Below are positions 24,818 to 37,858 of a stretch of DNA of 64,000 nt, piece by piece. Positions within the stretch are counted from its first letter, which is position 1. The number at the start of each line of letters is the position of its first letter. This DNA comes from a virus. Taxonomy: Duplodnaviria > Heunggongvirae > Uroviricota > Caudoviricetes. Below the pieces are notes generated by a model, which was not told the origin of the DNA, made no database searches, and saw nothing but the letters and a program-made list of their open reading frames with translations. The position numbers and the translations under genes were made by a program. The stretch lies in IMG/VR virus record IMGVR_UViG_2875697941_000001, one strand, 5' to 3'.

Positions 24818-25056
24818 AATTATGCCTCACTGTATTGACAACACAGAGCCTGAAGCTCTGACCTACTGTTTCACCCATGATCCATGCTGGGGTAATCTAA
24901 CAACATTGCGCTGTGTGTAAGATGAGCAATGCATAGCTGTAATGCCGTTGTATAAGGTTTCCCTGTTTGCTCATTTCCTTCTGAGCCGCTCTACAACGCT
25001 GAAGACACATTAAATAGTGAATCCAAAGTCGTATTACGAAACGGCGGCAAAACTAT

Positions 25057-25073
25057 AATTTATTAGAGCAATT
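25057..25073 (-). promoter_or_regulatory. C1 repressor operator
   Basis: AATTTATTAGAGCAATT, reverse complement AATTGCTCTAATAAATT, near-perfect consensus. Confidence 0.7.
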
Positions 25074-25138: not shown

Positions 25139-25155
25139 ATTGCTCTAATAATTAT
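25139..25155 (+). promoter_or_regulatory. C1 repressor operator
   Basis: ATTGCTCTAATAATTAT, 44 nt upstream of loxP. Confidence 0.65.
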
Positions 25156-25641: not shown

Positions 25642-26673
25642 ATGTCCAATTTACTGACCGTACACCAAAATTTGCCTGCATTACCGGTCGATGCAACGAG
25701 TGATGAGGTTCGCAAGAACCTGATGGACATGTTCAGGGATCGCCAGGCGTTTTCTGAGCATACCTGGAAAATGCTTCTGTCCGTTTGCCGGTCGTGGGCG
25801 GCATGGTGCAAGTTGAATAACCGGAAATGGTTTCCCGCAGAACCTGAAGATGTTCGCGATTATCTTCTATATCTTCAGGCGCGCGGTCTGGCAGTAAAAA
25901 CTATCCAGCAACATTTGGGCCAGCTAAACATGCTTCATCGTCGGTCCGGGCTGCCACGACCAAGTGACAGCAATGCTGTTTCACTGGTCATGCGGCGGAT
26001 CCGAAAAGAAAACGTTGATGCCGGTGAACGTGCAAAACAGGCACTGGCGTTCGAACGCACTGATTTCGACCAGGTTCGTTCACTCATAGAAAATAGCGAT
26101 CGCTGCCAGGATATACGTAATCTGGCATTTCTGGGGATTGCTTATAACACCCTGTTACGTATAGCCGAAATTGCCAGGATCAGGGTTAAAGATATCTCAC
26201 GTACTGACGGTGGGAGAATGTTAATCCATATTGGCAGAACGAAAACGCTGGTTAGCACCGCAGGTGTAGAGAAGGCACTTAGCCTGGGGGTAACTAAACT
26301 GGTCGAGCGATGGATTTCCGTCTCTGGTGTGGCTGATGATCCGAATAACTACTTGTTTTGCCGGGTCAGAAAAAATGGTGTTGCCTCGCCATCATCCACC
26401 AGCCAGCTATCAACTCGCGCCCTGGAAGGGATTTTTGAAGCAACTCACCGATTGATTTACGGGGCTAAGGATGACTCTGGTCAGAGGTACCTGGCCTGGT
26501 CTGGACACAGTGCCCGTGTCGGAGCCGCGCGAGATATGGCCCGCGCCGGAGTTTCAATACCGGAGATCATGCAAGCTGGTGGCTGGACCAACGTAAATAT
26601 TGTCATGAACTATATCCGTAACCTGGATAGTGAAACAGGGGCAATGGTGCGCCTGCTGGAAGATGGCGATTAG
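25642..26673 (+). CDS. cre: Cre tyrosine recombinase
   Basis: 343-aa protein MSNLLTVHQNLPALPVDATSDEVRKNLMDMF... with R-H-R-Y active-site context, adjacent to loxP. Confidence 0.97.
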   Translation: MSNLLTVHQNLPALPVDATSDEVRKNLMDMFRDRQAFSEHTWKMLLSVCRSWAAWCKLNNRKWFPAEPEDVRDYLLYLQARGLAVKTIQQHLGQLNMLHRRSGLPRPSDSNAVSLVMRRIRKENVDAGERAKQALAFERTDFDQVRSLIENSDRCQDIRNLAFLGIAYNTLLRIAEIARIRVKDISRTDGGRMLIHIGRTKTLVSTAGVEKALSLGVTKLVERWISVSGVADDPNNYLFCRVRKNGVASPSSTSQLSTRALEGIFEATHRLIYGAKDDSGQRYLAWSGHSARVGAARDMARAGVSIPEIMQAGGWTNVNIVMNYIRNLDSETGAMVRLLEDGD

Positions 26674-27842: not shown

Positions 27843-28031
27843 TAAATATATTATTTTTAATCTGAAATAATTGACAACTGACAAGTGACTTCAGTCAGAA
27901 TCATCACATGCCCGGTACGGATGGATCCCTTTTCAAATATTCCATGGACGGCACAGTCTGAGTACCGGGCGCTACCTTCAGTTGTATTGCTAAGCCGCCG
28001 CTGGTGGCTTTTCTTTTTTATAAGGGGCGCT

Positions 28032-28673
28032 ATGGATAAGAAAATATGCGTTGTTTCGATGAGCGTCGGCAAACCGGCGTCAATGACTGCCGCATGGATC
28101 AACAATGAGCTGATAATGGCTGAGCGGACCAGCTACCCTGAACGCCGCCGCGATATGGAACTCCAGCTGCTGCGCGAATTGCAAGAAAAAGAGGAAAAGG
28201 GTTTTATCGTGCTGGTGGAAGAGGAAAACAGCTTTATTACGGGTCGAGTTGGCCAGCGTGTAAGGTTGCGCGATCCCTTCATGAACGGCAGGCCGGTACT
28301 AATTGAAGCAATGCAGATTTACAAGGAGCTGGAACGCCAGAAAGCGATCAAGTTACCGCGCAAAGAATCCGGCAAATACATCCTCCACCAAAGCATCTTC
28401 GATTCCGAACACGACAAAAAAGGCGATGAATTTTTCAACATCAACTGGAGCGAAATAACGACAGAGCACGTTCTGTCGTTGTTATGCTGCTTCGCAACGG
28501 AATATAACAACGTTGCAAGCGCCGACTACATCAGGGCAATGGCTGGAGAAGTTGAGGCCCGCCAGGAACCATCGTTACTAAGCCCTCTGATTAACATAAT
28601 TCGCGGAACCCAATGTCTAGCCGACAAGCGAGTTCCTCAAGGCTTACTTACCGGCAAAGAAAACTATTTATAA
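28032..28673 (+). CDS. hypothetical protein (P1 mat position)
   Basis: ATG 28032 preceded by AAGGGG; track ORF extends in-frame upstream to GTG 27885, start not resolvable by eye. Confidence 0.55.
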   Translation: MDKKICVVSMSVGKPASMTAAWINNELIMAERTSYPERRRDMELQLLRELQEKEEKGFIVLVEEENSFITGRVGQRVRLRDPFMNGRPVLIEAMQIYKELERQKAIKLPRKESGKYILHQSIFDSEHDKKGDEFFNINWSEITTEHVLSLLCCFATEYNNVASADYIRAMAGEVEARQEPSLLSPLINIIRGTQCLADKRVPQGLLTGKENYL

Positions 28674-28763
28674 TTAATTACGTCAGTAGCCAATAGAGAT
28701 TTTTGTTGTGGAACAAAAATATATATTTTACAATCTAGTAACTTTGGGTGGAGGATTATTACA

Positions 28764-29804
28764 ATGATGAATATTAAGCCGCTGAAAATTAGGAACAAGG
28801 TCATGAAGCCTCATAAAGCATTATTAAACCCTGACCTAACCGCAAGGAATGTACTTACATACAGTCATTGGGATTTTGTCGAACTCTGGTTAAAGCGAAA
28901 CGAAAAAGATGAGGCTCTTTTTTATTGGGAGCAAGCAAAAGTATTTAATCAGGCGGCCAATGGTTTACCCAACCAATCAGCCCCACTTTTGCACTATTAT
29001 TCATTCATGAATGCAGTAAAGGCGTTACTTTCATCTCGCAATATAAACTTCAAACAGCATCATGGTGTTGCTAGGGGTGAAAATACAGCCCAAATTGATA
29101 ACTTATCTGATATAAAAGTAAAAATAAAAAATGAGGGTATACTTCCGTCTTTTTCAAAATATATTGACGGCACCTCTCATGAGGGGGTGTACAATATAAA
29201 AAACCTTTTTTCTGGATTGCCATATATTCATCGTACATATTGCCTTACTTATGATGTAACTGATGATATATTTATTCCACTGATCGATGCTGAGTTCGTT
29301 TTGAATGAGTCAGACAATAGCCTGTTTTTCACTGCGATTTTATCCAAGGATTTTCGGTTCGACACAGTTTTCGACATTCTACCGCCAGCGTTCGAATTGT
29401 TTGAAAGAGAAAAGTACAAAATAAAATCAGTAGAATCATTACTTGATTTTAATGAAAATCAATCGTCCAACATGCCGCAATTAACTGAATTTCATCAAAA
29501 AATAAGAAGAGATCTTTACTATATCAATGGCGCAGAGACTCTTTGGTATCTCAAACGTAAAAACAATCAATCTGAGCATACTTCTGTTTCAATATCGCCA
29601 TTGGTTATAACCCTAGCAGCTATGCATCGATTAAGTGAGCTATGTCGGTATGACCCACTTAAGCTAAGACAGTTACTAAATGAAAAAGAAAACTGGATTA
29701 TTGCTGAATTTATTCAACAATCTCCGTCACAGTTTATAGATGCAATTTCATCTGAAATTACTGGACACCAATTTCTTATCCCAAACGTAAGGTCTGCTTC
29801 TTAA
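28764..29804 (+). CDS. uncharacterised 346-aa protein, first gene of low-GC cassette replacing res-mod
   Basis: GGAGG RBS 9 nt before ATG; strongly AT-rich codon usage unlike flanking backbone; only a weak R-x6-H (RNINFKQH) motif noted. Confidence 0.75.
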   Translation: MMNIKPLKIRNKVMKPHKALLNPDLTARNVLTYSHWDFVELWLKRNEKDEALFYWEQAKVFNQAANGLPNQSAPLLHYYSFMNAVKALLSSRNINFKQHHGVARGENTAQIDNLSDIKVKIKNEGILPSFSKYIDGTSHEGVYNIKNLFSGLPYIHRTYCLTYDVTDDIFIPLIDAEFVLNESDNSLFFTAILSKDFRFDTVFDILPPAFELFEREKYKIKSVESLLDFNENQSSNMPQLTEFHQKIRRDLYYINGAETLWYLKRKNNQSEHTSVSISPLVITLAAMHRLSELCRYDPLKLRQLLNEKENWIIAEFIQQSPSQFIDAISSEITGHQFLIPNVRSAS

Positions 29805-30313
29805 TGAATATATATATCGCATGCGCTTTAACTCATGTTCCAAGGGAAATTTTCCATGAGTACAGTAATTGGATTCACAGCCTTGCAAAAGGTCTATCTC
29901 AAAATAACAACGTAAAATATGCTTTGATAAATAGTGACCCAGAATTATCAAAGCGCCCTGAAAGTAACAAATCTAGACTTTGTTACATTTGGGACAGAGA
30001 TATGGTTGAGAAATCTGATGTAATAATTGCAGAATGTAGTTTTCCATCAACAGGGCTAGGAATAGAGTTGCAGATTGCTGAACAGAAGAACATTCCTGTA
30101 ATCATCTGTTATAAAGATTATGGGATAAATAAAACTAAAACCATTGAATACGTGAATCCAGATGAGACTACCCATAATCTACAAGTTGGCGAGGGTTTCA
30201 TTTCTCATATGGTATTAGGACTACCAAACATCCTTGATGTCATATTATGTAAAGATATTGATAACACATGCAGGAAGCTAAAAATACTGTTAGATATGAT
30301 TAACCATAATTAA
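29804..30313 (+). CDS. nucleoside 2-deoxyribosyltransferase-like (NDT/DNPH1-fold) protein, second gene of cassette
   Basis: start overlaps upstream stop (TAATG); MNIYIACAL N-terminal strand and SDVIIAECSFPSTGLGIELQIAEQKNIPVIICY resemble NDT-family catalytic region. Confidence 0.75.
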   Translation: MNIYIACALTHVPREIFHEYSNWIHSLAKGLSQNNNVKYALINSDPELSKRPESNKSRLCYIWDRDMVEKSDVIIAECSFPSTGLGIELQIAEQKNIPVIICYKDYGINKTKTIEYVNPDETTHNLQVGEGFISHMVLGLPNILDVILCKDIDNTCRKLKILLDMINHN

Positions 30314-30371
30314 AAATTAACACCCACTTAAGATGTCTAAACCAGCCCGGTATTAACCGGGCTAGACAAAC

Positions 30372-30620
30372 TTAATCAGCATTCAGGAGCAATGCATTAT
30401 CTATGATGATTTGCTCCCATTCTTCGAATGCCCGGTCGCGGACGCCCTGGGGAACGCTGTTAGTTTTGAAATCGACGACCGTACGCCATTTCCCGTCCGG
30501 GCGGTACATGCGCAGAGCTTTACTTCCCCCTTCCCTGCGCACCTCAACGTTATGCTTATCAGCAAACTCTTGTAATGCTCGTAGCGTCCCATGCTTTACT
30601 GTGTAGTATCGCTTTTTCAA
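30372..30620 (-). CDS. small hypothetical protein (P1 lxc position)
   Basis: 82-aa ORF overlapping upstream gene by 4 nt. Confidence 0.5.
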   Translation of the reverse strand: MKKRYYTVKHGTLRALQEFADKHNVEVRREGGSKALRMYRPDGKWRTVVDFKTNSVPQGVRDRAFEEWEQIIIDNALLLNAD

Positions 30621-31057
30621 GTTTTCTCTCCAGCCTGTGCCAAGGCTTCAACTTCCAAATCGTAAGACTCAAATTCATAGTCCTGGTCGTCAACTTCTTC
30701 AGGCACTGGCAGTAAATGCCAGGCTGAGTATATCTGACCATTATCAAAACGCTCCTGGCTGTAGAGCGTCGCGGCTATGAGTGTTAGAGCCGGGCGGTCA
30801 TAACGGTAAATTTTGCGAACGTCACGGTCAACGAGACGACCGAAATTACCATAACCGCGCTCCAGTAATAATTTTTTAATTTCCGGCCAGTATGGACCAT
30901 AGCTGCGGTACAGGCGGGGATTTTTCAGTAATCGCCCGCGTAGCCCTGACAGGAAGAAATCAACGTATTCGTCTTCTGTCTTTCCTAACAACGCTGTACG
31001 GAGTACCGCCTCAAGATATGTTTTATTCGGTTTTATTGTATCAGATAGTGTGGCCAT
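30617..31057 (-). CDS. hypothetical protein (P1 ulx position)
   Basis: 146-aa ORF immediately downstream of darB on same strand. Confidence 0.55.
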   Translation of the reverse strand: MATLSDTIKPNKTYLEAVLRTALLGKTEDEYVDFFLSGLRGRLLKNPRLYRSYGPYWPEIKKLLLERGYGNFGRLVDRDVRKIYRYDRPALTLIAATLYSQERFDNGQIYSAWHLLPVPEEVDDQDYEFESYDLEVEALAQAGEKT

Positions 31058-31090: not shown

Positions 31091-34000
31091 TTATGCGTAT
31101 TGTTGGATGACGGCCAGAACGTCCGCCACGTTGTGTTTTGTCTCGATAATCCACCAGTTACCCGGGAAATCGCTGTTCTTCGCCTTCGCTGGCAGCCAGC
31201 GAGCGCCGAATTTCGCCTTGATTGCGTCTTTCGCACGGAAAAGAACGCCTTTCATGCCTGAGGCTTCCTGAAGCCCAAATACCTCGCCAGCGGCGAATTT
31301 CGGTGCGTACATCATCTTCAGGTCGGCGGTGGATACGCGATAATTCAGACCAAGAGACTGAGCTATGCTGGTGGCATCACCCTGTATTGATGATAACTCT
31401 TCTTGTTTCTCGTTTCTGGCGGCAATTTCTTCCTCCGTGATGTTGCCAAGGGCCAGGTTTATCCGATCAGCGTCGGCCTGTTTCTCTTCATCGGTGCGCC
31501 CGGCAAGAACCGTGTTAATTCTCTGCAATATCTCCACATGATTCTTGCGCATGCTGAGCAATTCCGGCGTAACCTCGTTAAGATCCACCAGCCCAAGGAT
31601 GGCAAGGTCGGAAAACATTGATACCAGGTTGTAGGTCATGCGATAGCTGAGTTGGCCATAGGCTGATGGCAACTGCACCGCATCCATTTGATAGGCATCC
31701 ATAAATTTAGAGCCGGCGTTTACGACATCCGCAATTGCAGGTGTGATTTTCCCTGTGGTGGCGGCCTCCCTGATTGCTGTTACCCACGATTGAGTCAGTG
31801 CGGCGACTGCATGATTCAGATTGGCTTCCCGTTCTGCTGCGATGCGCGCGTTTGCTGCGTCCATTGCCTGCTTGATCTCGGCTTTATTGCTGTAAATGCC
31901 AATGGTGCCAAACTGTGCTGTGGTGATCTCATAATCTGACGCCCGGAACTCATGGGTACCGAAAATGGCATTGGTGACCTCAAGTTCAGAATCCCCGTTA
32001 CGAGTAGCCCCCTGGCTTGTTTTCTCCGGCATTTTTGCGATCGCATCCGCTATTTTCTCCTGAATTGCTTCAGGGGATAGCGTATCTCCGTATGACGCGA
32101 TTACATCGCCATAATTGGAGCCAAACAATTCAACCAGGAATGTTTCTGCCGAACGGATCTGGCGGTTATTCCCTTCCGACATCATACCAAGCACCCATTT
32201 TGCAATTGACGACTTCAGCGCGCCGTCACGGCGATCCGGGTAAACCGCATGCTTCAGTGGGTCCGTATAGGTACCAACAAAATCAATGCTATAGCCTGAC
32301 TCTGTAGTCTGAACGCCGTATGAGTCAGTGATTTTGATCATGCCGCGCTGCTGGAAACGGTAGAAATCGTCACAGGAAATGATGTCGTTAATCCCGGCGA
32401 TGGAGACGCCACCACTGATTTTCTGCATAACAGCATCTTCATCGGGAGTTACATCCACCTGTTTATCCAGCGTCTTCACATCCCAGTTACCCGATTTGGT
32501 GCCTCTTAAGGTAAAGATGATCTCCACGTCTGCGCGCTGGCTGTCGAAGTCCAGCGACTTAATGCGAACGATATCACCGGCACAATCGTAGTATTGGCCT
32601 ACACGCCATGAGCGATCGCCGATAACAAGGAACTCATTCGCATGGTTAACCAGATCAGGATCAACATCCAGAATGCCTTTATTTATTGCATCCTCCACCA
32701 GCGGGCGCAGGCGTTTGATATCCGTCGCGGCCTTCTGAGTACGGTTCAATAATTTCTCATAGCGGGAGATGGCCTGAGAGATATTAGCCTTGCGCTGAAT
32801 GGCGCTTTTCAACGACGCGCGATACTGTGCTAACAACATACGGTCTGTGTGATGGACACTCCCCCAGCGGGCCTTCCAGTCTGCGTTATCCGCTGCCTTG
32901 GCCATTGCCGCCTGTTTGAATTTAGCTACCTCGGCGGTGGTCTTTTCAAGTTCCGCTTTGCTTCGCTCTAATTCAGCGGTAAGTACCTCCACATCCTCGC
33001 CAGCTGCGTGCTGCGCCTTGATGTAGTTCTGAAGGTCGATAGTAGCCTGTTCTTTCTGGCGAGCGCGTTTCGCAGCTTTCGCCTTATCCATTTGAACCTG
33101 CATCATTGCCAGACGTTCGCCGTCATCCTTCGCGGTATACATCTGCATTTCGATCATGTCATTGGCGTCGGCGTTCTCCATTTCTGACTTATCTGAACGG
33201 AGGATATCGGAGATCCAGCCTGCTTTACGCTTCAGCGTCTTCAGTCGGTATTCATCGAAAGACCCCTTGCCGCAGTAGTAGTGAACGCGAACGCTTGCAC
33301 GGTTGGAACCAACTCGGGCACCGCGACCGTTACGCTGTGCGATACTGGCTGGTGTCCACGGCAACGTCAGGTGGTGGATATCCGTCGTTCCTCGATGCAG
33401 GTTGATACCCACCTCTGCCTTTTTGTTGCAGATGATGATCGGAGTCCGGCCCTCCTGGAAGTCGGCTGCAATCTTTTCCAGACCGCCCAACGACATTTCA
33501 TTTTGCTGCGCGATATAGGCGTCATACAGAGCCATTTGCTCGTTGTATTTCGCTATCTGTGCATCTGTTGGTTCATCCGGTAGCTCTTTCGGCGGTTTAA
33601 CCGCTTTCAGTTTCTTACCGGTTTTACCTGCCTCGGCAACCGTCTGAGCATTCAGGATCCCCACCTTTGAAGGTTCAAGGTTTAGAGCATTGCAGATAAT
33701 GCGCTTGAGCTTCTGGTGCTGCGTTTTTTCATCGGTGAAGATGATTTGCTTACCTTCCGGGAAAAACTCCTTCAGCGTGGCGATCAGCTTCGCGTATTTG
33801 GGCGTAACGGGGTGAGTTACGGTCTGTTCGTCAATGCCAAACCTGGCCAGGCGCTTATTCACTTCCTGCTCGAACGCTTCCGGAACCTGCAACTGAATAA
33901 ACTCGCCCTTATCTATCAGGGAGTATTGCGATTGCTGCGTGATTGAATCATCACTGTCGTCGTCTTCGCTGGTGGCTTGTTTAGGCAAACTGTCCGCCAG

Positions 34001-37000
34001 CTGCTGCACCGCATCGGCGTACTCCGGCAGGAAACGATAGGTGATCCGGCGATAGTACAGGTCCATGTCAGTACATACGCGGTCCATATCCCTGATTATT
34101 GAGAAGATCGGACGGGCTTTCTCGTGCTCAATCACGCCGTCTTCATTGACCGAGGTCGTTACGCCATTGTTGGCTTTGGCCGCCGCTTCCGCCTGCTGAC
34201 GCAATTCTTCATACGCCGCCAGTTGTTCTTCAGTAAGTGGTGCATCCTGCTGGTGTTCGTCCAGCTCCGGGATCTCCACGGTATCCTTAACGTCTTCCGC
34301 CGTTTTAAGCGTTACCCAGCGATGGAATATACCGCGCAGCGCATCAAGGTTTTCAAAGCCCATCAGCGCCATTTTTTCTTCAACTTCACCGCTAATTTTC
34401 TGTACCGTTTCCAGCCTGGTCTTGCCGAAGAATTTAACGAAGTCATCAGGACCGTAGATCCCCATGTTCTGCCAGTATTCCTTCGGCAGAACATGAGAAA
34501 GCATGTTGTATGCATCGATCGGGGTGTTAACGACTGGCGTTGCAGTCAGGAGAACCGGCCCGCGCCCGCCATTCTTTTTCATCAGGTACGCGTTTTTAAT
34601 TGCCATATCTCGCGCCGATTGCGCCACCGCGCTGGTGGGCAGATAGGCCAGTTGTGACGCTTCGCGACCATTTTTATAGCTATTGCGGTAGTTGTGACCT
34701 TCGTCAGCGATCACACTATCGAAGCCCATATCCTCAAAGTACGGATACTTCTCTGCTTTTTCGGTGCCGGTATCTGAATACTCCGACAATACCCGGCGAC
34801 GCGCGGCCTCTTTGCGGTGGGAGTCGGAGTCCATTGCGCTGGCTACGCGTCCGGCGGCAACGAAGTCATAAAGCATATCCTGTGCATGCTCATCTACGGT
34901 GTCATCACGTAGCGGAATGCGGGCGTATTGTTCTTTGGTAAACACGACTGCACGGTAATTTGAGTGCGGGATCGCGTTCATCCGCGCCGTGATAGTGGCT
35001 TCATCTGCCAGTTTTAGGGCATCGCGCATAACTGGAGTGCCATCAGTACCAAGAACAGGTTTACCGTTCTCATCGAGCACCGGCACCTGGCGAATCTGAT
35101 CGCCATCCATCAGCACATCAAGACCGACGAACAGGTAGTTACTGAATGCCTCTTCACTCAGGAATTCTTTTGCTTCGTAATACCAGTTTTCCAGCACTGA
35201 TTTAGGCACTACATACGCAGTACGGGTGGAGCGACCGTTCTCATAGTTGAACGCCTCAAGCGCCAGCGCGGTCGTGGTTTTACCCAGCCCGGTGCCGAAG
35301 CCCAGGATGCCGCGCCCATCTTCGGACAGTCGGCGCACCTCGCTATTCTGGTAATCAAATGGCTGGCGCTTACCGCTTAATCCCTTCAACCCAAGCGGAT
35401 CGCCAGAGTGTTCATACGGGATATTGCTATTGAACACATCGTTGTATTTGGCAACCAGCTCATCGTAGCGATCGTGCGTCTTGATCCACTTATTGAACTG
35501 GTCCTCAAGCAGTGCCATCTGCTCGCGGTAGCCGTTCGCCGTCGCGCTATCTTTGCCACCGATACGCGCACCATTGAGATACTTTTCCAGCTGTGCCGGG
35601 AACCCGGTCGCGTTTTCACCTGATTTACGGTCCCACTCGTAGCGGATCTCGCCTGTTTCTTTATCCTTACGCTGGACGACACCGTATCGGTGCCCGACGA
35701 ACAGACCATCACCACCGTGATAGGTGTCAGAAACCATTTCGTCGCCTTCCAGCTGCACTGACTGCACATAGCGCAGATCCGGATAGCCGTTTTCCTGCAA
35801 AAATTCCAGAATGACGGAACGGTCGAACCAACGGCTATTGAGCTTAAACCGGATATTCTCTGCTGGCGTCTTGATGCGCTTCTCTTCGATCGCTGCCAGC
35901 TGATTAAGGACGTTGTTCTTTACTGGACCGTCGGGGAGCGTGGCGAGGAATTCCTGTTTTGGAGCCACTATCTCGTTAATGTCGCCGCTGGTGGCGCGGG
36001 CGAACGGAACAATCCCGCCATACGGTGAAACCGCAATGCCAGGGGTGCTGGCCAATAAATTAAGCAACTCGTCATCACTGGCTGGCAGTTCGCCGGTAAA
36101 CGCAAGGCGGAAATCATCGAGCTGGATTGGATCGCGAGTGAGATCACTGTAGAGATAACGCAGGGTGTCCTGATAGCTGGTAGAGTCATAACTGGCGCTG
36201 GAATCATGCGTAACCAGTTTTCCTGTCAGCTCGTCAGAAATAGTGCCATCCAGCTTAATTGCACCACGGAAAGCAAACCAGGCGCGCGCACCGCTCCCCG
36301 ATAATTTCGCTATCGGACCGCGACCGGGGTTACCAAAACGGTCAATCTCTGCCTGCAAACGGGATACCAGAGAAAGGCGCTGCTGTTCGATTTGTTCAGC
36401 ACTATGCCCGGCGGCCTTCATATCCTGATATTCAATTAACATCCGGCCAATCATCGCTCCACGATACAAGCGTTCACGGTATTTTTCAGGCTGGCTGTTA
36501 ATCCAGTCCACCAGCTGCACCATATCGTCGCTGATTGATGTGGTGTACTTATCGCGGACATTTGCCATCTGGGTAAATGTCATACCGAGACGGCCTTCTG
36601 TTGTAGTCAGGTTACGCTGAAGAGCCTCCCAGCTATCCGCGCCATAACTGGCAACCTCAATCTTCAGCTCCTTCCCGGCATCAGCTTCAATCCAGCGACC
36701 ACCAGCATATTTTTGCCATACGCCATTAATCAGGCGCATTTCCCCTTCATCAACAACATCTGCGGTCGGTGACGGTTCAGCCATATCGAGCAAAGACCAG
36801 TCGATACGGCTTTCGAAACGATGAATCAGCTTCGCTTTAAGAGCCTGGTTATCAATCTGACCGTCGGCACGAACCTCAATACGCCCCTGGAAGCCCTTTT
36901 CCTGGGTGCCATGAACAAACCGGCGGCCATCCTTTTCAAACCACTTGCCAGAAATAAACGTTGGCCAAAGCACATTTGCCGATTCAAGAGTGCTCTCATC

Positions 37001-37858
37001 CACCAGGGGGATTTTCTCAGCCATCTCCGCCGGATGTTTGCGCATCAGCACCACGTCAACGACCGTACTGGTCCCGTTTGCGTCAAAAGTACCGGTAGGC
37101 AAGCGGTGGGCACCAAGAAATTCAGCTTTACGGGATAGGCGCAGGCGTAACCGCTTCATGTTTGAACCTGAAACAATGGACGGCGGCACAATCACGCACA
37201 TGAATCCGCCAGGCTTTATCTTGTCCAACATGCGGAGCATGAAGTAAGACCCCATGTCCGTTTCTTCTGCGTAAGGCTTATCGATGTTGCGTGTGTTATC
37301 ACGACCGCCGAACGGAACGTTACCCACAACATGGTCGAATGAATCGTTAGGCGTGCTTACAGCCAGTTGTTCGAACGGGGAAATTTGTACGCTGTCTTCC
37401 GGATGTAACAGCTGGTTTATACGACCGGAAACACTGCTGATCTCAGTCGCGGTCATCACCGTACCAACCGGTTTTGTCTCATTAAAAACGCCGGTTCCCG
37501 CCGATGGTTCCAGAGTGTTACCTACGTCCGCGCCGTAGAGCTTCATGATCTCCCAGACACCTTCAGCGATCGGCTTTGGTGTGTAATATTCGGAGACGGA
37601 CCCGCCAATGCCGCCTTCACCGGTGTACCCAGCCAGGATCTGGCGCTGTTCATCTGTCAGTGTCGCGCCGTCCACCAGCGAATTAAGCAAATCTATCGCC
37701 TTCTGATTCGCCTCACGGCGCAGTCGGTCATAGCTTTTGCCTTCCACCTTTTCCACGCCGTATTTAATCGGCGCTCGGTGAGATGTTATTGCCCTAATGT
37801 ATTTCAATATTTCGCTGACACTTGAACAGCGAAACACTCCCATAGATAGCTTGTTCAT
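31091..37858 (-). CDS. darB: DarB-like giant N6-adenine methyltransferase / SF2 helicase fusion (anti-restriction)
   Basis: 2255 aa; N-terminal SAM motif LEPSAGTGVF and catalytic VGNVPFGG; helicase motif I GFGTGLGKTTTA and motif II DEGHNYRN; size matches P1 DarB. Confidence 0.9.
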   Translation of the reverse strand: MNKLSMGVFRCSSVSEILKYIRAITSHRAPIKYGVEKVEGKSYDRLRREANQKAIDLLNSLVDGATLTDEQRQILAGYTGEGGIGGSVSEYYTPKPIAEGVWEIMKLYGADVGNTLEPSAGTGVFNETKPVGTVMTATEISSVSGRINQLLHPEDSVQISPFEQLAVSTPNDSFDHVVGNVPFGGRDNTRNIDKPYAEETDMGSYFMLRMLDKIKPGGFMCVIVPPSIVSGSNMKRLRLRLSRKAEFLGAHRLPTGTFDANGTSTVVDVVLMRKHPAEMAEKIPLVDESTLESANVLWPTFISGKWFEKDGRRFVHGTQEKGFQGRIEVRADGQIDNQALKAKLIHRFESRIDWSLLDMAEPSPTADVVDEGEMRLINGVWQKYAGGRWIEADAGKELKIEVASYGADSWEALQRNLTTTEGRLGMTFTQMANVRDKYTTSISDDMVQLVDWINSQPEKYRERLYRGAMIGRMLIEYQDMKAAGHSAEQIEQQRLSLVSRLQAEIDRFGNPGRGPIAKLSGSGARAWFAFRGAIKLDGTISDELTGKLVTHDSSASYDSTSYQDTLRYLYSDLTRDPIQLDDFRLAFTGELPASDDELLNLLASTPGIAVSPYGGIVPFARATSGDINEIVAPKQEFLATLPDGPVKNNVLNQLAAIEEKRIKTPAENIRFKLNSRWFDRSVILEFLQENGYPDLRYVQSVQLEGDEMVSDTYHGGDGLFVGHRYGVVQRKDKETGEIRYEWDRKSGENATGFPAQLEKYLNGARIGGKDSATANGYREQMALLEDQFNKWIKTHDRYDELVAKYNDVFNSNIPYEHSGDPLGLKGLSGKRQPFDYQNSEVRRLSEDGRGILGFGTGLGKTTTALALEAFNYENGRSTRTAYVVPKSVLENWYYEAKEFLSEEAFSNYLFVGLDVLMDGDQIRQVPVLDENGKPVLGTDGTPVMRDALKLADEATITARMNAIPHSNYRAVVFTKEQYARIPLRDDTVDEHAQDMLYDFVAAGRVASAMDSDSHRKEAARRRVLSEYSDTGTEKAEKYPYFEDMGFDSVIADEGHNYRNSYKNGREASQLAYLPTSAVAQSARDMAIKNAYLMKKNGGRGPVLLTATPVVNTPIDAYNMLSHVLPKEYWQNMGIYGPDDFVKFFGKTRLETVQKISGEVEEKMALMGFENLDALRGIFHRWVTLKTAEDVKDTVEIPELDEHQQDAPLTEEQLAAYEELRQQAEAAAKANNGVTTSVNEDGVIEHEKARPIFSIIRDMDRVCTDMDLYYRRITYRFLPEYADAVQQLADSLPKQATSEDDDSDDSITQQSQYSLIDKGEFIQLQVPEAFEQEVNKRLARFGIDEQTVTHPVTPKYAKLIATLKEFFPEGKQIIFTDEKTQHQKLKRIICNALNLEPSKVGILNAQTVAEAGKTGKKLKAVKPPKELPDEPTDAQIAKYNEQMALYDAYIAQQNEMSLGGLEKIAADFQEGRTPIIICNKKAEVGINLHRGTTDIHHLTLPWTPASIAQRNGRGARVGSNRASVRVHYYCGKGSFDEYRLKTLKRKAGWISDILRSDKSEMENADANDMIEMQMYTAKDDGERLAMMQVQMDKAKAAKRARQKEQATIDLQNYIKAQHAAGEDVEVLTAELERSKAELEKTTAEVAKFKQAAMAKAADNADWKARWGSVHHTDRMLLAQYRASLKSAIQRKANISQAISRYEKLLNRTQKAATDIKRLRPLVEDAINKGILDVDPDLVNHANEFLVIGDRSWRVGQYYDCAGDIVRIKSLDFDSQRADVEIIFTLRGTKSGNWDVKTLDKQVDVTPDEDAVMQKISGGVSIAGINDIISCDDFYRFQQRGMIKITDSYGVQTTESGYSIDFVGTYTDPLKHAVYPDRRDGALKSSIAKWVLGMMSEGNNRQIRSAETFLVELFGSNYGDVIASYGDTLSPEAIQEKIADAIAKMPEKTSQGATRNGDSELEVTNAIFGTHEFRASDYEITTAQFGTIGIYSNKAEIKQAMDAANARIAAEREANLNHAVAALTQSWVTAIREAATTGKITPAIADVVNAGSKFMDAYQMDAVQLPSAYGQLSYRMTYNLVSMFSDLAILGLVDLNEVTPELLSMRKNHVEILQRINTVLAGRTDEEKQADADRINLALGNITEEEIAARNEKQEELSSIQGDATSIAQSLGLNYRVSTADLKMMYAPKFAAGEVFGLQEASGMKGVLFRAKDAIKAKFGARWLPAKAKNSDFPGNWWIIETKHNVADVLAVIQQYA

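Follow-up and report, generated by a model that had tools for sequence, protein, structure and literature searches.

What kind of cargo occupies the interval between mat and lxc in a P1-like phage-plasmid that lacks the restriction-modification (R-M) genes found there in P1 itself? The question is raised by a 64,000-nucleotide stretch of the caudoviricete virus record IMGVR_UViG_2875697941_000001 (hereafter the window), in which the interval between these two genes, positions 28674-30371, is filled by two open reading frames (ORFs) that we term A and B. An initial annotation, made from the sequence alone, had proposed that this two-gene cassette stands in place of the P1 res-mod genes and could be an undescribed anti-phage system. 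The first point is borne out by P1, where the EcoPI res and mod genes (the latter interrupted by IS5) lie between mat and lxc. Using profile searches, structure prediction and comparative genomics we show that A belongs to the YaaC family and B has the fold common to DNPH1 and the nucleoside 2-deoxyribosyltransferases (NDTs), and that together they form a conserved operon found well beyond P1-like elements. We think it on balance probable that the two genes were acquired horizontally as an anti-phage module residing in a P1-like cargo slot, a module that would attack the nucleotide pool with B as its effector.

Reexamination of the locus confirmed the two coupled, low-GC ORFs described in the initial annotation: the TAA stop codon of A overlaps the ATG start codon of B (cttaATGaat; TAATG), such that A and B are translationally coupled. 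The GC content is 0.34-0.38 across the cassette against ~0.47-0.53 on either side (400-nt windows), and 0.35 for the cassette as a whole against 0.478 for the 64-kb window. The same difference is apparent at third codon positions, with values of 0.32 for A and 0.30 for B as against 0.58 for the backbone gene darB. The cassette is foreign DNA, presumably acquired by horizontal transfer.

The second protein, B, gave the clearest structural assignment. Its AlphaFold model (pLDDT 96.5), when used in a Foldseek search of the PDB, recovered DNPH1, the CMP N-glycosidase BcmB and NDTs as the top matches (E = 1e-5 to 3e-4, prob 1.00). Likewise, a profile derived from 55 B orthologues recovered Rcl/DNPH1 from the PDB sequences (E = 5.9e-5), and a search with the B sequence alone reached DNPH1 with E = 0.02. 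The initial annotation had predicted an NDT/DNPH1 fold for B, quoting two peptides that are both present in the protein, and the model confirms the flavodoxin-like alpha/beta fold common to DNPH1 and the NDTs. Several B orthologues also have a precomputed match to the corresponding Pfam family, PF05014. Examination of the conservation pattern across the 55 sequences revealed that D64, G84, G86 and E88 are invariant, and Y4 and S82 nearly so; E88 is the glutamate of the GIELQIAE peptide that had been singled out as conserved. D64, S82 and E88 of B align with D69, S87 and E93 of Rcl (numbering counted from the alignment), with E88 falling on the glutamate of the GYELG motif of Rcl/DNPH1 and D64 on the aspartate 24 residues earlier. 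Y4 lies in strand 1 (IYIAC), and the Pfam match begins at this residue, which corresponds to position 2 of the Pfam model. As judged from these alignments, B carries the putative Tyr-Asp-Glu triad Y4-D64-E88 of the NDT superfamily. A Tyr-Asp/Asn-Glu triad has been described as characteristic of this superfamily and is needed for hydrolysis of dAMP by the DmtZ enzyme (PMC12884076). Given the fold, the profile match and the conserved triad residues, we predict that B is very probably an active N-glycosidase or transferase. R14 of B is also nearly invariant, and we take this arginine and the conserved serine to point to a 5'-phosphorylated substrate, on the assumption that phosphate is bound as in Rcl.

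Beyond these shared features the B family has a C-terminal beta region of its own, marked by the motif YAL(V/I)NSDPQL and the invariant residues Y116, L126, Q127, G129 and G131. It is a small family, with 34 representatives at E<=1e-30 among the 1.84 billion searched. A second tier of relatives, 250-565 residues in length (P0294, P0296, P0297, P0298, P0301, P0315 and P0332), combines an N-terminal NDT-like domain bearing the PSTGTGQELERA motif with long low-complexity or coiled C-terminal extensions, in which no Pfam domain was found.

The first protein, A, had been described as having no nameable motif beyond a weak R-x6-H. This description has to be revised: A is recognizable as a YaaC-family protein (PF14175, 157.6 bits against a cutoff of 27, E = 6.3e-46, model positions 18-307 of 307), a name that it also bears in RefSeq ('YaaC family protein'). 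The structural model of A shows four helices in an up-down bundle that can be superposed on HEPN domains; this core is formed by approximately residues 35-91 and 279-333 (helices 49-65, 73-91, 279-296 and 310-333), and a ~180-residue alpha/beta domain is inserted between helices 2 and 3. According to a survey of the HEPN superfamily (2013), inserts typically occur at this very position, between helices 2 and 3, and helix 3 carries the Rx4-6H motif at its end. A has an invariant arginine, R295, at the end of helix 3, in the family consensus CRYxPLELxSFL, and no histidine at +5 to +7 from it. The R-x6-H of the initial annotation corresponds to R93...H100, and was rejected as a HEPN motif since R93 is not conserved, though H100 is invariant. 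Invariant histidines occur elsewhere in A, namely H288, H100 and H156 (in H156-R157-T158); those of the insert domain are encoded at 29061-29069 (H100-G-V) and 29229-29240 (H156-R-T-Y) of the window. The same survey noted that the AF0298-like and AbiV HEPN domains share this deviation of a missing histidine, and an alternative site composed of a histidine and an arginine has been proposed for them. YaaC itself is absent from the main text of that survey.

Searches with the model of A against the PDB using Foldseek returned nothing significant, the best match being Usb1, a 2H phosphoesterase (E = 0.37). The Usb1 lead was prompted by the invariant H156-R-T158: one HxT motif is present in A, and the second was not found. 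A mini-HEPN construct of A, from which the insert had been removed, recovered only YaaC from Pfam.

To determine how widely the two genes travel together we surveyed one genome per species across 100,044 species, and obtained 37 full-length B orthologues from about ten phyla, 36 of which could be assessed for the upstream gene. A YaaC gene lies 3-70 nt upstream of B on the same strand in 33 of these 36 loci. Conversely, when we started from distant YaaC genes of Nitrospina, Myxococcus and Aeromonas, a gene for a protein of 169-179 residues was found directly downstream in all three. The pairwise distances of A and B are also correlated over 44 pairs (Mantel r 0.74; none of 2000 permutations reached this value). 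The hosts include Bacteroidota, Alpha-, Beta- and Gammaproteobacteria, Myxococcota, Campylobacterota, Spirochaetota, Armatimonadota and Planctomycetota, and most of the YaaC-B homologues are chromosomal. Two alleles on P1-like plasmids, 96% identical in nucleotide sequence, yielded ratios of nonsynonymous to synonymous substitution rates (dN/dS) of 0.28 for A and 0.05 for B; therefore both genes are under purifying selection, with A evolving faster. A and B constitute a conserved, co-inherited operon that is patchily scattered across phyla. The computational outcomes that the initial annotation had named beforehand as able to overturn its proposal, namely searches placing both proteins in a non-defense function or a failure of the pair to co-occur in other genomes, were all looked for, and none of them spoke against it.

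The pair also appears to be new to the defense literature. No family in PADLOC-DB 2.0.0 matches A or B at E<=1, scans of both proteins against NCBIfam and PHROGs gave nothing useful, and no paper mentioning the YaaC family, YaaC-like proteins or PF14175 was found in the openly accessible literature that we searched. The YaaC-NDT pair is apparently undescribed, as the initial annotation had it, as far as this older PADLOC release and the accessible literature go; an earlier description under another name is possible.

In the remaining three of the 36 loci, B is coupled to a different upstream gene, which codes for a dCTP-deaminase-like (DCD-like) protein instead of YaaC. These partners are 316-352 residues in length, match PF22769 with E ~1e-26 (above the Pfam cutoff), possess hydrophobic C-terminal helices, and are encoded by genes that overlap the start of B. 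The pair from Piscirickettsia abuts an Abi_2 gene. We considered whether these partners represent the known defensive dCTP deaminases and rejected this, as none of the three matches a PADLOC model. The combination of the DCD-like protein with B may be a second undescribed two-gene system sharing the same effector. In the light of the DutZ and DmtZ enzymes of certain phages, which we return to below, B is most economically supposed to act on a deoxynucleoside monophosphate (dNMP). By the same analogy, the exchange of partners suggests that the upstream protein might supply or gate the substrate of B.

We then examined the gene-neighborhoods of the homologues. The copy on an E. coli chromosome is flanked by an integrase and BrxR on one side and by a Dpd cluster on the other, in Bradyrhizobium genes for GajA (E = 1.8e-172) and a UvrD-type helicase come next after the pair, and the copies of Chryseobacterium have a PycTM protein and a helicase-DUF2726 protein in their vicinity. 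When the 124 proteins encoded by the two nearest ORFs on either side of 34 loci were compared with PADLOC at E<=1e-10, they matched 218 of its families, as against 16 for 116 proteins sampled in like manner around generic NDT-family genes, a contrast that is to be read as supportive and not as quantitative for reasons given below. The matches in the flanks of the pair include type I R-M, GajA/GajB, PDC-M19 and mad2. In terms of Pfam domains, the commonest among these flanks are ResIII, DEAD, SWI2_SNF2, HSDR_N, AAA_21, N6_Mtase and the OLD-like TOPRIM, whereas ABC transporters and tRNA synthetases are the commonest in the control.

One further pair is found in the accessory region of a lambdoid prophage (L002), with methylases alongside. 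There, the pair is followed on its 3' side by a 479-residue protein (8590-10029) with no Pfam match and a weak match to the PADLOC family PDC-M58A (E = 4.7e-4), and then by a C5 DNA methylase, a Methyltransf_35 protein and a HATPase_c_3 protein. These genes may represent a further defense cluster.

The site that the cassette occupies proved to be equally telling when compared across P1-like elements. Apart from the res and mod genes of P1, the slot in an Escherichia fergusonii P1-like plasmid (L013:9858-11165) holds a gene for a 435-residue SIR2-family protein, which matches the PADLOC candidate PDC-S25 (E = 3.7e-28) and the ThsA SIR2 models. In phage Ro157c2YLVW it holds two unrelated genes, in pUTME-12-1 a GNAT acetyltransferase and in pSF10EC-2 an IS5-family element, while in RCS47 only 39 bp separate mat from lxc, with no cargo gene. 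The occupants of the slot include a GNAT acetyltransferase at L099:7955-8560, a 198-residue protein together with a helix-turn-helix protein at L014:1725-3299, and a ~1.4-kb stretch with a single small annotated ORF at L098:7881-9311. The mat-lxc interval is a variable cargo slot, and its designation as a hotspot in the initial annotation is upheld by the type III R-M and SIR2 genes of its relatives. We found no paper on this slot as a hotspot in the openly accessible literature searched. As to the proposal that the element has lost its own R-M system, no res or mod homologue is present anywhere in the window; given that the content of the slot varies and that some relatives have none, loss is just one possible history.

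Among the plasmids of PLSDB, mat is present in 697, 85 of which carry the cassette. It is further found in 109 of 5426 complete E. coli genomes (~2%), where 109 of its 112 places are plasmids. It is present in none of 50,697 deposited phage genomes, and relatives were recovered from just eight of 2.9 million viral contigs, four of these being the P1-like element itself.

A DUF4145 gene, belonging to a HEPN family, was observed between ref and mat in other P1-like plasmids (L013:8150-9004 and L099:6270-6992); its product has a weak match to PADLOC PD-T7-4 (E = 2.9e-4), and the homologous position in the window is ~27843-27884. This points to a second variable slot between ref and mat, one gene upstream of the mat-lxc slot.

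The boundaries of the cassette could be placed by comparison with these relatives (Table 1). On its 5' side lie cre, a c8-like gene, ref and mat, whose ORF ends at 28673. In many records of other P1-like plasmids the megablast matches to mat stop at ~692-764 of the 824-nt query, and in an alignment with RCS47, P1, the E. fergusonii plasmid and Ro157 identity is lost from about column 53. The second homology break between slot variants is the stop codon of lxc. The initial annotation made the genes on this side begin at 30620; that position is in fact the start codon of lxc, which is read from the minus strand, so that the cargo ends at 30371, as the coordinates of that annotation themselves have it. 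The entire interval is 100% identical to part of the E. coli IncY plasmid NZ_CP023896.1, where the same genes are annotated.

Table 1. Positions of the cassette, its borders and backbone neighbors in the window, and of the loci that couple B to a DCD-like protein (locus number before the colon)
Feature	Position	Strand	Basis or remark
Gene A, YaaC-family protein, 346 aa	28764-29804	+	ORF, sequence
Gene B, NDT/DNPH1-fold protein, 169 aa	29804-30313	+	ORF, sequence
Left boundary, 3' end of mat	28613-28673	+	Divergence from other P1-like elements starts at ~28613
Upstream intergenic region	28674-28763	+	Candidate promoter and Shine-Dalgarno sequence, read by eye
GC-rich hairpin between convergent B and lxc	30328-30375, core stem 30344-30363	.	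Folding
cre	25642-26673		P1-like context
lxc	30372-30620	-	Start codon at 30620
ulx	30617-31057	-	P1-like context
darB	31091-37858	-	P1-like context
DCD-like + B	L029:9009-10540		Desulfarculales metagenome-assembled genome
DCD-like + B	L037:8946-10531		Bacteroidetes metagenome-assembled genome
DCD-like + B	L056:2297-3743		Piscirickettsia salmonis

Upstream of A we noted by eye a candidate promoter, composed of TTGTGG (28706-28711) and TACAAT (28729-28734) separated by a 17-nt spacer, and a GGAGG Shine-Dalgarno sequence at 28750-28754. These features hint that the cassette probably has its own promoter. A scan with promoter and terminator consensus sequences returned nothing convincing 5' of A or 3' of B; it left the candidate promoter unreported because the -35 hexamer matches the consensus at only 3 of 6 positions, and it omitted the hairpin between B and lxc because this lacks a run of T. 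The hairpin is predicted to fold with -21.2 kcal/mol (z = -5.8 against shuffled sequences), and is a probable bidirectional terminator marking the right edge of the cargo. In RCS47 a different hairpin occupies the homologous position, directly before the lxc stop codon; the terminator thus seems to arrive with the cargo and to differ between its variants.

In keeping with the initial annotation, there is no C1 operator before the cassette: no C1-operator-like site with <=3 mismatches to the consensus (ATTGCTCTAATAAATTT) was found between 27184 and 37787. At this threshold the window contains 11 such sites as against 0.25 expected by chance, all located within 8296-41654 (for example 25056-25072 and 25139-25155) and none of them near the cassette. 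They are consistent with an intact P1-type immunity circuit.

How might such a module work? We propose that B acts as the effector, an N-glycosidase that would remove the base of a nucleotide phosphorylated at the 5' position; the likeliest substrates are a dNMP or a nucleoside monophosphate, and NAD+ is a possible one. In so doing it would drain a nucleotide pool needed by the replicating phage, and thereby block DNA synthesis or cause abortive infection. A, the faster-evolving partner, would sense infection and restrain or activate B; it may bind a nucleotide or RNA ligand via its HEPN core and insert domain, and it may also be a second enzyme with a non-canonical, AF0298-type site formed by R295 with H288, H100 or H156. 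Since B is coupled to a protein of the dCTP-deaminase/dUTPase fold in three genomes, it might also operate downstream of an enzyme handling deoxynucleoside triphosphates (dNTPs), giving a two-step route from dNTP to dNMP and then to free base and deoxyribose-5-phosphate. With a probable promoter of its own and no C1 operator, the cassette is therefore expected to be expressed in the lysogen, where it would protect the host and the plasmid. We entertain more tentatively, as possible rather than probable, the broader proposition of a phylum-spanning immune system in which YaaC detects infection and licenses base stripping by the DNPH1-like protein, with the DCD-like + B pair as its two-step sister.

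Several observations weigh against the proposed defense module with B as its effector. The division into sensor and effector derives just from relative evolutionary rates and the swapping of partners. By itself B scores 22.1 bits against PF05014 (E = 1.8e-4), which is below the gathering score of 28.8. Because the canonical HEPN histidine is missing, an RNase role for A is uncertain, and the Foldseek search yielded no significant structural match for its insert domain. Some of the neighborhoods are uninformative (L010, L100 and L102). Further, the control loci of the flank comparison come from other taxa, mostly small-genome bacteria of the candidate phyla radiation and archaea that have fewer defense genes anyway, and the PADLOC families counted are redundant, whence the caution attached to that contrast. 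Finally, the anti-restriction genes ulx and darB are close neighbors of the slot. This last point would fit a role in counter-defense or nucleotide remodeling on behalf of the P1-like element itself, through destruction of immune signaling nucleotides or of one nucleotide class, for which the NDT-like enzymes of Z-phage nucleotide metabolism offer a parallel; lytic transcription is also conceivable, as no terminator was detected between mat and the cassette. However, the near-absence of the family from viral contigs and deposited phage genomes, the defense systems adjoining its homologues in bacterial chromosomes, and the absence of a C1 operator together with the putative promoter, which fit expression in the lysogen, make this role improbable in our view.

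Within the defense interpretation the main rival is the opposite wiring, in which A would be a HEPN-type RNase effector with an AF0298-like site and B the sensor, signal maker or neutralizer. Like the TIR protein ThsB, B would then make a small-molecule signal, by glycosidase or base-exchange chemistry; enzymes of the NDT superfamily indeed transfer bases besides hydrolyzing. The constancy of B against an upstream partner that alternates between YaaC and DCD-like proteins is a pattern seen in effector exchange, and the type that A best matches structurally is AF0298, a HEPN with a proposed alternative His-plus-Arg site. Nevertheless, the lower dN/dS of B would be expected of an effector rather than of a sensor, A lacks the canonical histidine, and none of the ligand-binding domains of known signal-activated effectors was recognized in A, so that we consider this arrangement unlikely. 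Less likely than the opposite wiring, and quite doubtful in our estimation, is an addiction module of the toxin-antitoxin (TA) type that stabilizes the low-copy plasmid prophage by post-segregational killing and has no specific anti-phage function. Such a module would likewise consist of two translationally coupled genes in a compact, plasmid-borne operon, HEPN-fold proteins are common as TA toxins, and TA genes occur near some homologues (HicAB in L100 and a ParE-like gene in L002); against it, the homologues are mostly chromosomal and in defense-type neighborhoods, and the slot otherwise holds R-M or SIR2 genes, though addiction and defense are not mutually exclusive roles. That the two genes are ordinary nucleotide salvage functions carried as passive cargo, as could be imagined from the metabolic roles of classical NDT and DNPH1 enzymes on nucleosides and nucleotides and from the one homologue that adjoins a 5'-nucleotidase, is very improbable in view of the great rarity and patchiness of the family, the tight pairing of B to a HEPN-fold partner, and the low-GC, foreign character of the cassette and its location in a hotspot; generic NDT genes, moreover, have housekeeping neighbors, which the B family does not.

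If confirmed, the anti-phage module would join a familiar kind of system, namely two-gene, nucleotide-targeting and probably abortive, as a new member rather than found a new category. It would nonetheless provide a first function, or at least a functional handle, for the widespread and uncharacterized YaaC family. The mat-lxc slot, and possibly the ref-mat slot, would become a place to mine for systems as the hotspots of P2 and P4 were. Clinical and animal isolates of E. coli commonly carry P1-like phage-plasmids, and if the cassette protects its carriers this would bear on the phage therapy and phage typing of such strains. In that event N-glycosidic cleavage of nucleotides outside retrons would join the known immune chemistries. 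Should the two-step route from dNTP through dNMP to base and deoxyribose-5-phosphate hold, bacteria would be using as an immune effector the same chemistry that Z-genome phages use. The swap between YaaC and DCD-like partners furnishes a directly testable hypothesis on how the effector is fed or controlled.

Among the known systems, the nearest experimentally studied analogue of the proposed effector is the NDT-like effector of retron Ec86 (Retron-Eco1), which is inhibited by its partner; its release results in depletion of NAD+ or adenine derivatives and in abortive infection. The likeness consists in an NDT-like fold in a defense effector. In the retron the partner is a reverse transcriptase with its multicopy single-stranded DNA and the effector is a larger protein of two lobes. 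B, by contrast, consists of one domain of 169 residues, and none of the PADLOC retron-effector models match it. A retron-type arrangement was rejected for the cassette, as its interval contains no reverse transcriptase ORF and no Rfam RNA family was found in 28300-30800. A second parallel is found in Z-genome (PurZ0) phages, where the dUTPase-fold dATPase DutZ and the DNPH1-like DmtZ (dAMP to adenine), which are often fused, destroy dATP. This combination of a dUTPase-fold enzyme with an NDT enzyme is mirrored in the three DCD-like + B pairs, and DmtZ and B have the same Tyr-Asp/Asn-Glu triad, a likeness judged from the published descriptions of fold and triad. The DutZ-DmtZ pathway, however, serves the DNA modification of the phage itself, and the usual partner of B is YaaC rather than a dUTPase-fold protein. 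DNPH1/Rcl and BcmB/MilB, the best structural and profile matches of B, share 15-18% sequence identity with it; DNPH1 and its relatives are stand-alone enzymes of metabolism or antibiotic biosynthesis, and B differs from them in its family-specific C-terminal beta region.

On the side of A, the AF0298-like HEPN-T and AbiV domains resemble it in the four-helix fold, the insert between helices 2 and 3, the retained arginine, the missing canonical histidine and the presence of other conserved histidines N-terminal to the motif or in the insert, while the ~180-residue alpha/beta insert of A, which has no significant match, sets it apart from the HEPN systems. In the HEPN-MNT toxin-antitoxin systems the partner is a minimal nucleotidyltransferase (MNT), unlike the NDT/DNPH1-fold partner of A. 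The EcoPI res-mod genes of P1 share with the cassette the slot and the backbone, and presumably the character of lysogen-protecting cargo, although their proteins and mechanism are unrelated to those of A and B. Finally, the nucleotide-depletion defenses based on dCTP deaminases and dGTPases confer immunity by destroying the deoxynucleotides that a phage needs. The dCTP deaminase fold recurs in the alternative partner of B; these defenses are single-gene systems acting on dNTPs, whereas the chemistry predicted for B is the cleavage of the N-glycosidic bond.

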